Origin: Escherichia phage Phi1
Length of the DNA stretch: 64,000 nt
Reading direction: 5' to 3' (one strand)
Sequence record: EF437941
Below are positions 44,989-49,055 of the stretch, piece after piece. The notes beneath the pieces were generated by a model, which worked only from the letters and a program-made list of their open reading frames with translations, did not search any database and was not told where the DNA came from. The position numbers and the translations under genes were made by a program. Every line of letters begins with the position of its first letter. Positions within the stretch are counted from its first letter, which is position 1.

Positions 44989-45765
44989 TTACACGCGAGC
45001 ACCGTAGATCGTGCCTACTTTATCCCAACGAGGGGCATTACCAGTAACGGCTTTACCAGCAGCACCACCGTTATATTCTGTACCGTTACCCTGAGTATTA
45101 CATCTTCCTCCAGCAGCACCAACGTTACCTCCAGCACCGCCTGTATATGCACTAAGAGACCCCGAACCAACAGATCCTTTACCTGGAGCGGAAATGGAGC
45201 CAGCGGTTGCACCAGAACCCATATTAGAGGAAGACCCACCAGCACCGAATGGGCGACCACCGCCACCACCAAATACTAGTATACCCCTGTTACCGCCACC
45301 ACCACCGCCACCGCCGCCAACGATAGCACCGTTATTTGTAATTCGTAGACGTGTACCGATAGCGTTATTGATTGCGTTTCCACCAGCAGCGCCAGCAGCG
45401 TTACTACCACCATTACCCCCACGTCCGTAGACAGTCACACCGGAGTTAATGATCAATGTTACATATTCGTTTGTTAACGAGCTAGGGAAGTCAAGACAAG
45501 GAACGCCAGTAGAATGAGAAACAATATTACCAGTGATAGTAATTACTACCGGAGTAGATCCTTGTGCTTTCATCCAGTTAATAAGAGTGTCTTTATTGTA
45601 AGAGTTACTAGCACCAATGCTATAATGAATCTCTTTAGAGCGTCCGACCATTGCCGACATATACGCCGGACGACCTAAGCGTACAGCTTGCATTGCGGCG
45701 CTCATCCACCGTTGACCAGTCTCGGACACCGCAGATGATCCTACCCATCCAGAAGATATTGCCAT
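44989..45765 (-). CDS. glycine-rich protein (function unknown)
   Basis: 258 aa; globular N-terminal region then long Gly/Ala/Ser/Asn low-complexity region with G9 run; GAGGA RBS; own terminator. Confidence 0.6.
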   Translation of the reverse strand: MAISSGWVGSSAVSETGQRWMSAAMQAVRLGRPAYMSAMVGRSKEIHYSIGASNSYNKDTLINWMKAQGSTPVVITITGNIVSHSTGVPCLDFPSSLTNEYVTLIINSGVTVYGRGGNGGSNAAGAAGGNAINNAIGTRLRITNNGAIVGGGGGGGGGNRGILVFGGGGGRPFGAGGSSSNMGSGATAGSISAPGKGSVGSGSLSAYTGGAGGNVGAAGGRCNTQGNGTEYNGGAAGKAVTGNAPRWDKVGTIYGARV

Positions 45766-46080: not shown

Positions 46081-46110
46081 ATTATGCAATAACACCGGAA
46101 CGATGTCAAC
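46081..46110 (-). promoter_or_regulatory. early promoter
   Basis: TTGACA-N17-CATAAT. Confidence 0.5.
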
Positions 46111-46412: not shown

Positions 46413-46759
46413 GCCAGACCTCGCAAAACACTAATAGCATAATCATGCTGGTTATTCATAATATCAATTGCATTGTGATAACGAGCTAAACCATCAAGGA
46501 TAAATTCTTGTTTATCCTGTTTCAGTTTGGTATCACGCGCAGCCATAAGAGCATCGAGAACAGGTCCAAAGTGATTATCTAATTCATCTTCGGTTGCAAT
46601 GTTTCCTATTGCATCGTCGATCCGTGATTCTAATGCTTGCTTTTCGTTGATCACTTGCTGGGTATATTCCAACACATCAAGAATATCGCGGGTAACGTCG
46701 CCATGATAAGGTATCCCCGCATGAAGATGATCAATTAATCGCTGAATATCAATGTTCAT
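46409..46759 (-). CDS. hypothetical protein
   Basis: 116-aa ORF. Confidence 0.5.
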   Translation of the reverse strand: MNIDIQRLIDHLHAGIPYHGDVTRDILDVLEYTQQVINEKQALESRIDDAIGNIATEDELDNHFGPVLDALMAARDTKLKQDKQEFILDGLARYHNAIDIMNNQHDYAISVLRGLA

Positions 46760-47094
46760 TTGTAACCCTCCTCTGAAAGCACATCCCAGATCGTTGCGTC
46801 AAGATGCATTAAATTCCACATAATAGAGTCATAACTACCGAAGCCAGAAGTAAAAATTACATCACACTGGCGATAAGTCTTATGAAAATCGGTAGCGGTC
46901 TTTGCGTCAATAGGCATATCGTCACCGGAAAGCACCAGACATTTAAGAATCATAACTCTGTTAGCCGTTGGCGCTTGCTTAGTCTTTTCAGCATATTTTT
47001 CGATGATCCGTTTTGCCTTTTCTTCTTTGATACGTCCAGACCAAATCCGGTTTCGGTATTGATTCATAATAATTTCAATCACATCATTTTGCAT
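46756..47094 (-). CDS. hypothetical protein
   Basis: 112-aa ORF. Confidence 0.5.
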   Translation of the reverse strand: MQNDVIEIIMNQYRNRIWSGRIKEEKAKRIIEKYAEKTKQAPTANRVMILKCLVLSGDDMPIDAKTATDFHKTYRQCDVIFTSGFGSYDSIMWNLMHLDATIWDVLSEEGYK

Positions 47095-47293
47095 TCTTCA
47101 CGGTCTCCATAATTGTTTTGTAAGCCAGTTTAAGATGATCACCGAAAAACTTTGCAGTGTTACCCTTCGGATCGCGGAGCATGGTTTCTACGATCTCATC
47201 GGCAGTAACAATTTCTCCTTTCTTTGCTGCATGTTCTACCATATACTTCAAAGTTTCTTCGGAAGCAAGTGCTGCGGCTACTGGATTAATCAT
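47084..47293 (-). CDS. hypothetical protein
   Basis: 69-aa ORF with cassette RBS. Confidence 0.5.
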   Translation of the reverse strand: MINPVAAALASEETLKYMVEHAAKKGEIVTADEIVETMLRDPKGNTAKFFGDHLKLAYKTIMETVKNAK

Positions 47294-47322
47294 TTTGATT
47301 CTCCTTTGTTGTCGATGTGTGC

Positions 47323-47351
47323 ATTATGCTATACCATGATCCGGTTGTCAA
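47323..47351 (-). promoter_or_regulatory. early promoter
   Basis: TTGACA-N17-CATAAT. Confidence 0.5.
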
Positions 47352-47361
47352 CACCTAAAAA

Positions 47362-47387
47362 CGAAAAAGCCACCCTTTCGGATGGCT
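47362..47387 (-). terminator. rho-independent terminator
   Basis: AGCCATCCGAAAGGGTGGCT hairpin followed by T-run. Confidence 0.55.
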
Positions 47388-47402
47388 TTTGATTATATTT
47401 TA

Positions 47403-47700
47403 TTCACGTCCATTTGTATAGTAGTGTTTGAATCGACCGTAACCAGTTTCAATGGTCATTGTTCTTTGGTGAACAATAGCCCAATAACCGTTACAGGAAT
47501 ATTGCAGATACAAATCTTTACCTTTCATAAACTCATTAAAGATTGTTTCTGCCAGTCATAATAGACAACATCTTCAAGTTACCCATCCATGCGGGTCTTC
47601 CGATTCGGCAGTAATTGAACACGCGAAAGTATGAGGAAGCCAAATGGTTGTGTTAATGCTAGTTTTCTTTTACTTCTGGTATGTATCCCACTGTGACTAA
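47403..47700 (-). pseudogene. possible decayed gene / gene remnant
   Basis: three short minus-strand ORF fragments (14, about 40, and 42 codons) in different frames, no long ORF, no obvious RBS. Confidence 0.25.
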
Positions 47701-47702
47701 CA

Positions 47703-48101
47703 TTAAGCCAGTCGAGTGAGTTTATAAATTGTTTTAAAGCATAGAGCTTTGATATCGTCTAAAACACTCTGTAACGAGCTATCAACATCATTATAAATCT
47801 CACTAGCCATTTGCGTTAACTCTTGCAAATAGGCAATTTCGCTAATCTCCTTGCGGACGACCAACGTTGGCTGATAACGACCAGTGATCCCAATATTGGT
47901 TTCAGTGAAATTATCAACCAATTCTTGCATTTCAAGATAGAACTCTTCTAGAGCCTTATGTTTTGCATAAGACCCCGGACCAGTTACCCCAAAATGCGCA
48001 GAATGCATATAAGTAACACTCATCAGACATTCACCGATAAAGCGGTCAACTTTATTAGCTTTCCCATCTTCGGACGTCTTTCGAAAATCACTGAATTTCA
48101 T
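47703..48101 (-). CDS. hypothetical protein, possibly ferritin/Dps-like
   Basis: YMHSAHFGVTGPGSYAKHKALEEFY resembles Dps helix-A/B signature; shorter than Dps; start set at internal ATG. Confidence 0.45.
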   Translation of the reverse strand: MKFSDFRKTSEDGKANKVDRFIGECLMSVTYMHSAHFGVTGPGSYAKHKALEEFYLEMQELVDNFTETNIGITGRYQPTLVVRKEISEIAYLQELTQMASEIYNDVDSSLQSVLDDIKALCFKTIYKLTRLA

Positions 48102-48390
48102 GTTCTCGATTCTCCATATTATGCAACATAACAAATTGTTGTGCGGCATATTCCCCCATAATAAAACACTGCTTAGAATCCATACATTTACTACGAGCAT
48201 ACATCTTCATAATATGGGCATGAAATTTCTGGCTGGTTTCAATGGAAGGAGATATTTTGTTTACATATACTATCATTGCACCGTCGAAATAATCAGTAAA
48301 GTCACCAGTTGGATCATATTGATCAGCACTAACGCTTCCGACCGCAGTAAAGCATATTGCCGCTGTTAGAGTTTTACGAATAAATGACAT
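48088..48390 (-). CDS. rI: RI lysis-inhibition antiholin-like periplasmic protein
   Basis: 100 aa; N-terminal signal/anchor; two Cys in C-terminal domain; adjacent to tk; late-promoter motif upstream. Confidence 0.55.
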   Translation of the reverse strand: MSFIRKTLTAAICFTAVGSVSADQYDPTGDFTDYFDGAMIVYVNKISPSIETSQKFHAHIMKMYARSKCMDSKQCFIMGEYAAQQFVMLHNMENREHEIQ

Positions 48391-48423
48391 AAGTCATTCC
48401 CCCAGATTTAAAATATTCAGTTA

Positions 48424-48431
48424 TATTTATA
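48424..48431 (-). promoter_or_regulatory. T4-type late promoter motif TATAAATA
   Basis: exact TATAAATA on minus strand about 35 nt upstream of the rI-like ATG. Confidence 0.45.
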
Positions 48432-48458
48432 ATCTGGGGCTTTATTTATGATTAACTC

Positions 48459-49055
48459 TTATTTGGTAGTACCGTCAATAAAATGTTTACGGCACACAGA
48501 AACATATTTATCCTCTGCACCAACTTCTATTTGAGCACCATCGCGAATAACATTACCATCTTTATCTACTCGAAGGACCATTGTTGCTTTCTTGCCACAA
48601 TGACAAATACCCTTCATTTCGACCAGCTTATCGGCAAATGCCATTAATGCCGCAGATCCTTCAAATAGATTGCCCTGAAAGTCAGTGCGAAGGCCATAGC
48701 ACAGTACAGGGATATTTGCATCATCAACAAGCGCACACAAGCCTAAAACATGCTCTTTAGTCATAAATTGGGCTTCGTCTACAAAAACTGCATCTGGACG
48801 CCATCGATCCGGTCTACGCTTACCTAACGATTCACGATAAACCAAGTCGAAAAGATCATCAGATTTAGTGAAGGTGATCGCTGGAGCACTTAGGCCAATT
48901 CGGGAAACGACTTCACTTTCTGAATCTCGATTATCAATCGCTGGCTTAAGAATTAATACTCGCATATCACGTTCGGTATAGTTATAAGCACTTTGTAATA
49001 GGGAAGTTGATTTGCCAGCGTTCATAGATGCATAGTAGAAATATAATTGCGCCAT
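48459..49055 (-). CDS. tk: thymidine kinase
   Basis: 198 aa; P-loop MNAGKST, VDEAQF, zinc ribbon CHCGKKA ... CRKH. Confidence 0.9.
   Translation of the reverse strand: MAQLYFYYASMNAGKSTSLLQSAYNYTERDMRVLILKPAIDNRDSESEVVSRIGLSAPAITFTKSDDLFDLVYRESLGKRRPDRWRPDAVFVDEAQFMTKEHVLGLCALVDDANIPVLCYGLRTDFQGNLFEGSAALMAFADKLVEMKGICHCGKKATMVLRVDKDGNVIRDGAQIEVGAEDKYVSVCRKHFIDGTTK

Follow-up and report, generated by a model that had tools for sequence, protein, structure and literature searches.

What is the stretch at positions 47403–47700 of the window, the 64,000 nucleotides of Escherichia phage Phi1 DNA (sequence record EF437941) that we analyzed? An earlier note, made from the letters of the sequence, took these ~300 bp to be the site of a gene inactivated by frameshifts. 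We asked which gene this would have been, how it was lost, and whether what is left of it still has a function.

A large gap at the end of the tk/rI/rI.-1 unit

The window belongs to Krischvirus, the genus of the RB49-like T-even phages, and shares ~97% identity over 20 kb with RB49, Cognac, ECD7, and other members. Every gene neighboring 47403–47700 is carried on the minus strand (Table 1). The distance from rI.-1 to the next gene is 410 bp (47703 to 47293), the largest gap locally. The same gap measures 329 bp in RB49, where the remaining intergenic distances of the homologous stretch range from −14 to +89 bp.

The boundaries given in the earlier note proved to be right, with the rI.-1 stop codon on one side and a predicted intrinsic terminator on the other. 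This terminator is kept in all alleles that we aligned and is also annotated in GEC-3S and G2248. The predicted early promoter beyond it belongs to the next transcription unit and marks the downstream limit of the locus; small ORFs follow this promoter and run to the gp38 adhesin gene (44989–45765, minus strand).

Table 1. Features of the rI.-1 to terminator locus and its surroundings, in window coordinates
Feature	Coordinates	Strand	Remarks
tk	48459–49055	−	First in transcription order of the locus
rI, antiholin	48088–48390	−	After tk
rI.-1, 132 aa	47703–48101	−	Pfam DUF5856 (PF19174, E = 7.8e-21); homologous position in the RB49 and GEC-3S annotations
rI.-1 stop codon	47705–47703	−	Start of the relic region
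Decayed RBS	47683–47692	−	AGTGGGATAC versus intact AAGGGGGAATAC; 2-bp deletion plus a substitution (alignments)
Former start codon	47680–47682	−	ATG changed to ATA; common to the RB49-type relic
5′ stub, codons 1–30	47592–47682	−	Versus G2248 locus 1–151: 89.5% identity, E = 1.6e-53 (BLAST)
Deletion junction, direct repeat GGAAGACCCG	47592–47601	−	The two BLAST segments overlap by 8 query bases
3′ stub, codons 650–714 and ancestral TAA (47402–47400)	47400–47591	−	
Residual 42-codon ORF	47400–47528	−	Start is ancestral internal Met673; 41/42 identical to G2248
Fragment IPEVKEN, then stop		−	Frame 2
Fragment TSINTTIWLPHTFACSITAESEDPHGWVT, then stop		−	Frame 0
Fragment EDVVYYDWQK		−	Frame 1
Fragment TIFNEFMKGKDLYLQYSCNGYWAIVHQRTMTIETGYGRFKHYYTNGRE, then stop		−	Frame 0
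Intrinsic terminator (predicted)	47390–47365	−	11-bp stem, 5 GC pairs, GAAA loop, then T-run TCGTTTTT
Sigma-70-type early promoter (predicted), TTGACA-17-CATAAT	47351–47323	−	11/12 match; annotated in GEC-3S

Several features of the surroundings were recorded along the way. DUF5856 was the sole Pfam result for rI.-1, the ORF called Dps-like in the earlier note and labeled "starvation-inducible transcriptional regulator" in RefSeq. The mechanical ORF list gives this gene 165 aa (47703–48200, minus strand, start at 48200), and its annotated homologues start at the equivalent of 48101 (132 aa), which leaves a 14-nt overlap with the end of rI. A second promoter-like site at 46109–46081 (minus strand) has hexamers and spacing identical to those of the promoter at 47351–47323 (TTGACA-17-CATAAT, 11/12). 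Each of the two stands ahead of a block of small ORFs, the first one after the terminator, and this layout of promoter, small ORFs, and terminator is presumably what the earlier note called "cassettes." Finally, the last 40 nt of rI.-1 (47742–47703, minus strand) contain TTTATAAACTC, which precedes the former start codon of the lost gene described below by ~40 nt. The T4 late-promoter core has the consensus TATAAATA, and the two are alike at 6 of 8 positions. TTTATAAACTC is invariant in all alleles, and this conservation proves nothing because the motif lies inside the rI.-1 coding sequence. It might once have served as a promoter for late transcription of the lost gene.

The gap contains the two ends of a gene that is intact in six relatives

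As the earlier note had observed, the region is devoid of long reading frames: no ORF of more than 59 aa was present in any of the six frames of 47403–47700. The minus strand has two ORFs only, one of 42 aa with an ATG start (47400–47528) and one of 35 aa with a TTG start (47536–47643). Three-frame translation of this strand revealed the pieces of one ancestral protein spread across the three frames (Table 1), in agreement with the claim that three ORF fragments lie here in different frames.

We searched for homologues by megablast with 47250–47800 and then, more sensitively, with its central 171 bases. Megablast returned 57 Krischvirus records, always in two pieces that covered 72% of the query and spanned ~470 bp versus 551 bp. 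Among the matches listed, coverage of the window allele stayed below 80% in every record, and 40 of 40 rows spanned 468–471 bp, the length of the allele found in RB49. In a three-way alignment, the flanks were conserved and the center lacked homology. The central 171 bases matched six phages, G2248, Brandy, UPWr_E1, SSG23, SFHK24, and JK32, in all of which this sequence forms the 3′ end of an intact CDS of 2,139–2,148 bp (712–715 aa). The CDS sits exactly between rI.-1 and the conserved terminator and is annotated as a "hypothetical protein." The search for an intact homologue in related phages, suggested in the earlier note, was therefore successful: the homologue occupies the exact position and spans the ORF fragments, and the region is made up of the remains of a decayed gene and not of conserved non-coding DNA. 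Intact copies are present in 6 of the 57 Krischvirus records; the other 51 retain only codons 5–32.

These results make it very probable that 47403–47700 is a non-functional deletion relic, or pseudogene stub, of a ~2.15-kb Hoc-like gene that lay between rI.-1 and the terminator. The locus is a case of ordinary gene loss and not a new element.

A large in-frame deletion is the main lesion of the relic

The window keeps codons 1–30 and 650–714 of a 714-codon gene, in the right order and orientation. The main lesion is an in-frame deletion of 1,857 bp (619 codons) leading from codon 30 to codon 650, so that Pro30 is joined to His650. In BLAST, the 3′ stub aligned with G2248 locus 2001–2268 at 95.1% identity (E = 3e-119), a segment that includes the stop codon and the terminator, and the segment aligned with the 5′ side (G2248 1–151) consists of the end of rI.-1 plus codons 1–30. 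Both stubs also aligned with the ends of the intact gene in Brandy and JK32. The 3′ stub corresponds to the second half of a Hoc-type C-terminal domain. The nucleotide count agrees as well: 95 codons and the stop codon (288 nt), with 1 nt gained and 6 nt lost, give 283 nt, the length of 47682–47400. The three ORF fragments in different frames can therefore be read as pieces of one ancestral protein.

The frameshifts are accessory lesions within the stubs, namely a +1 insertion, a 4-bp deletion, and two 1-bp deletions. The insertion, near 47665 in the 5′ stub, places a TAG (47661–47659) in frame. The 4-bp deletion and one of the 1-bp deletions lie just past the junction (within 47592–47578) and lead to an in-frame TGA at 47576–47574, and the other 1-bp deletion lies in an A-run of the 3′ stub (within 47551–47541). 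Downstream of the A-run, 42 codons continue in the ancestral frame to the ancestral TAA at 47402–47400. Translation initiation signals have also decayed. No Shine-Dalgarno sequence of the lost gene is left in the window, which reads CAGTGGGATACATA where intact homologues have AAGGGGGAATACATG; the absence of an RBS noticed earlier is thus confirmed.

Together, these data describe a pseudogene by its usual marks, homology to an intact syntenic gene and a reading frame destroyed by start loss, frameshifts, premature stops, and a large deletion. Gene decay was correctly recognized in the earlier note. Its mechanism has to be revised, since the 1,857-bp deletion is the main lesion and the frameshifts are secondary, and so does its scale, since the decayed gene measured ~2.15 kb, about seven times the size of the gap, instead of ~300 bp.

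Two relic types point to independent deletions of a full-length copy

Apart from the six phages with the intact gene, every other isolate sampled has a different, shorter relic at the same position, and in RB49, GEC-3S, Cognac, phiS, FL04, MIZ4, JSE, and ECD7 it is one common allele. This RB49-type relic keeps G2248 locus 1–182, a 35–40-bp island at ~1916–1954 that is 95% identical to Brandy (E = 7e-13), and 2169–2269. Compared with the window, it retains segments that the window has lost (G2248 locus 152–182 and ~1916–1954) and lacks one that the window has kept (2001–2168). The different segments kept by the two relic types indicate independent deletions of a full-length copy, with large deletions having occurred at least twice. 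The decay of the RBS, the change of ATG to ATA, and the +1 insertion are common to both types, which suggests that silencing of the gene came before its deletion.

We also considered the reverse polarity, in which a short non-coding region would be ancestral and the 714-aa gene would have been inserted later in six phages. Such a gain would suit the minority status of the intact gene and the larger genomes of the six phages that carry it (168–176 kb). It does not explain why both relic types hold coding sequence from both gene ends, ordered and piecewise in frame, nor why they contain different interior pieces, which only loss from a full-length ancestor accounts for. In addition, the intact copies diverge to 58% identity yet are full-length, as expected for an old gene under selection. 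The relic-to-gene BLAST, the allele alignment, and the frame translation effectively refute gain in place of loss; we rejected it and leave it next to no probability.

The junction of the window deletion offers a clue to the mechanism of the loss. It falls within a direct repeat of 8 bp (GAAGACCC) when compared with the 3′ site of G2248 and of 10 bp when compared with that of Brandy. At the 5′ deletion site, the window and the RB49-type alleles have CGGAAGACCCG; at the 3′ site, intact alleles of the G2248 type have TGAAGACCCA, and Brandy has TGGAAGACCCG. A junction at which a single copy of an 8–10-bp repeat survives is what replication slippage, or else illegitimate recombination at short repeats, is expected to leave behind. 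Classical work on the rII region of T4 has made spontaneous deletions of this kind, with endpoints in short direct repeats, well known. The window junction is like these in lying in an 8–10-bp direct repeat of which one copy is kept; unlike the rII deletions, which were selected as laboratory mutants, it belongs to a natural allele and is recognized by comparison.

We propose the following sequence of events. The 5′ lesions common to the window and the RB49-type relic would first have silenced the gene. Recombination at the short direct repeats, of the slipped-strand or illegitimate kind, would then have taken out the gene body in an event separate from the two different deletions that would lie behind the RB49-type relic. 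Today, transcription of tk, rI, and rI.-1 probably runs on through the relic to the terminator, making the relic the 3′ untranslated end of their message, and the sequence would be evolving neutrally.

A scan of IMG/VR for the lesioned 5′ motif did not find a full-length allele carrying the 5′ lesions: 16 of the 17 matches came from unrelated phages and were due to chance, and the remaining one, in the Krischvirus ECD7, was of the RB49 type. For this reason, the order of silencing first and deletion later is one that we infer, and recombination could alternatively have spread the lesioned 5′ end among alleles. The genes downstream do not reveal the donor lineage of the 3′ stub of the window, as sliding identity over shared genes against RB49, GEC-3S, G2248, Brandy, and JK32 gave a mosaic of 87–100%.

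The window-type junction had no second copy in the 57 phage records, IMG/VR, the JGI metagenomes, or the 44 retrieved loci, and the window-type allele therefore stands on one assembly. This uniqueness, together with the location of one 1-bp deletion in a homopolymer run, would be expected if the junction and indels were assembly or sequencing errors and the gene of the source phage were intact or otherwise deleted. We regard an artefact of this kind as highly improbable. A 10-bp repeat is far below the length of assembler k-mers or reads, making a collapse of 1.86 kb unlikely; a 4-bp deletion is atypical of homopolymer error; and the 5′ lesions are common to at least eight independently sequenced genomes, so that the gene was already dead. 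The 1-bp indels in the relic, one of them in the A-run, could individually be sequencing errors.

The lost protein is predicted to be a long Hoc-like paralogue

To what kind of protein did the stubs belong? Fifteen full-length cluster representatives of the intact protein share 58–100% identity and many invariant residues, indicating a real gene under selection. Pfam reported no significant family for the intact protein. An AlphaFold2 model built from the 15-sequence alignment had a mean pLDDT of 75.6, with values of >80 at residues 1–260, and showed successive β-strand modules up to about residue 604, ~7 domains by our own count. Past ~604, the model continues with a low-confidence linker and then a small α/β C-terminal domain, with pLDDT values of 31–64. 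The best Foldseek matches in the PDB were multi-Ig ectodomains such as those of contactins and sidekicks (E down to 1e-18), and the family profile gave weak matches to an "Immunoglobulin-like domain protein."

The C-terminal part points to Hoc. PHROG 1149, "Hoc-like head decoration," matched residues 478–698 (E = 4.3e-11). The family profile matched T4 Hoc residues 302–361 (E = 0.015), BLASTP matched RB49 Hoc residues 314–377 (E = 0.02), and hhalign against an alignment of four Hocs paired columns 626–688 with 317–381 (E = 1.4e-4). The region also matched the C terminus of a strongly Hoc-like 846-aa protein of G2248 (E = 4e-5). The scores of these five separate comparisons are individually modest, and they are consistent in that all five align residues 626–688. 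The motifs held in common are C.(Y/W)WV.DE(L/I) and (D/E)S.NG(Y/F), seen as WWV.DEI/YWVIDEL and ESRNGY/DSCNGY, respectively. The first motif includes the position aligned to Trp310 of T4 Hoc, a residue located at the capsid interface (PMC10385173).

We therefore predict that the ancestral 714-aa protein began with ~7 Ig-like domains, which a linker connected to a C-terminal domain similar to the capsid-binding domain of Hoc. From this resemblance we infer that the protein bound the capsid and was expressed late. Canonical hoc is kept in all 57 Krischvirus records, including all six with the intact gene, and the lost gene was thus an extra paralogue.

Like Hoc of T4 and RB49, the ancestral gene encoded a protein with a row of Ig-like domains at the N terminus and the Hoc-aligned domain at the C terminus. 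It differs from Hoc, which has three domains in 376–404 aa, in its ~7 Ig-like domains, in its very low sequence identity, and in its position: it adjoins rI.-1 in the early-gene region, whereas hoc is located between gene 24.3 and inh. The window itself keeps only 95 broken codons of it.

Second Hoc-like genes, giving two Hoc-type proteins per phage, have been described in Serratia phage Muldoon and Enterobacter phage PG7, and the Hoc-like protein of Muldoon has 10 Ig-like domains in 1,174 aa (PMC10385173). The Krischvirus case is similar in that a T4-like phage would carry more than one protein with a Hoc C-terminal capsid-binding domain and long Ig strings. In contrast to Muldoon and PG7, which belong to other genera and have intact genes, the Krischvirus paralogue is intact in a minority and a relic in the rest. 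Our literature searches found no description of the Krischvirus 714-aa gene or of its relic.

The remaining sequence is most likely a passive spacer

A relic may acquire a new role, and two such roles were weighed against the reading of the region as a dead stub. In the first, the ends of the gene would have been exapted as functional non-coding sequence, a small RNA or a structured 3′ UTR that stabilizes or regulates the rI.-1/rI/tk transcript. Transcription up to the terminator is expected, a relic of some kind persists in 51 of the 57 isolates instead of being fully deleted, and the stretch including the terminator folds better than shuffled sequences (z = −2.71). Without the terminator hairpin, however, the z-score is −1.21 and 11 of 100 shuffles fold equally well; the folding signal is therefore that of the terminator alone. 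Rfam searches of 46500–48500 at permissive thresholds gave chance matches only, the best at 21 bits where the gathering score is 55, and a scan of the region for tRNA and tmRNA genes found none.

Sequence variation also argues against a conserved RNA. Different internal sequence is kept in the window-type and RB49-type alleles, and the RB49-type relic varies as much as synonymous sites do. Mean pairwise diversity over the RB49-type alleles is 0.029 (the window allele being a single sequence), close to the 0.027 and 0.047 at third codon positions of the flanking genes and about 3–4 times the 0.007 and 0.009 at their first and second positions. A non-coding function is very unlikely in the light of these results.

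In the second role, one of the short ORFs, the 42-aa ORF or the 35-aa TTG ORF, would be a micro-protein gene, encoding for example a capsid-interacting fragment of Hoc type. The 42-codon ORF possesses an ATG, the ancestral frame and stop, a sequence all but unchanged from the intact protein (41/42), and SCNGYW, a motif conserved in the Hoc-type domain. Its ATG, on the other hand, is an ancestral internal methionine codon, preceded by a lone SD-like triplet, GAG, merely 3 nt upstream, which is not an adequate SD. The ORF is interrupted by an in-frame TAG in the RB49-type allele, where it is absent as such, and it is without the CPYWVIDELV segment, the part that aligns with tryptophans of Hoc for which contact with the capsid has been described (PMC10385173). 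Its product has no PHROG match, and an exact product look-up found no recorded gene. We judge the 42-codon ORF to be a relic and not a gene, and consider a micro-protein from either ORF extremely unlikely.

The most likely present role of the relic is thus a passive one, that of a 3′ untranslated spacer that is read through to the terminator. We predict that this terminator once closed the transcript of the Hoc-like gene and now closes that of rI.-1. For the window itself, the finding has little importance, and the gap should be annotated as a pseudogene remnant, a dead gene stub.

A further Hoc paralogue and the occurrence of long Hoc-like genes in Krischvirus

G2248 carries a third Hoc-like gene, that of the 846-aa protein mentioned above (MK327932.1, 105645–108185; PHROG 1149, E = 1e-46), directly upstream of canonical hoc. 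A CDS of nearly equal size is found at this position in UPWr_E1. In RB49, hoc is adjoined by RB49p168.2 (NC_005066.1, 100194–100391), a 65-aa "hypothetical protein" that aligns at 82% identity (E = 4e-21) with the final 39 aa of the G2248 protein. This match suggests that RB49p168.2, too, is what deletion has left of a large Hoc paralogue. It would be a relic of the same kind as that in the window, at another locus outside the window, with the difference that it is an annotated CDS in RB49 and the window relic is unannotated.

A broader scenario can be drawn from the two loci. Krischvirus may ancestrally have had up to three Hoc-type fiber genes (hoc, the 714-aa gene, and the 846-aa gene), with recurrent, independent loss of the long ones, in the lineage of the window and at both loci in the RB49 clade, by selection against long Ig fibers (through a packaging limit, the host or niche, or laboratory isolation) and not by drift. 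We put this forward as a speculation that we think is probably not correct. If it were true, the relics would mark a recurrent adaptive switch in capsid decoration.

As a by-product, our analysis brought out that Krischvirus has a family of long Hoc-like paralogues that had gone unannotated, each of them a "hypothetical protein" in GenBank. These long paralogues are gone from most cultured RB49-like phages through at least two independent sets of deletions, with a parallel relic beside hoc. A part in adhesion to mucus and to the surface of cells has been attributed to the Ig domains of Hoc (PMC10385173), and extra Hoc-type fibers may therefore matter when RB49-like phages are chosen for therapy or capsid display.

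Finally, we looked at contigs from Logan, ENA, and NCBI that encode the exact rI.-1 protein of the window (L035–L044). The intact 714-aa gene followed rI.-1 in 8 of the 10 places listed, in a listing that merges similar places and is not a count; in the other two, the same gene was cut by the contig end (L043) or the RB49 relic state was present (L037). The contrast with 6 of 57 cultured isolates is a hint of a bias between isolates and the environment.
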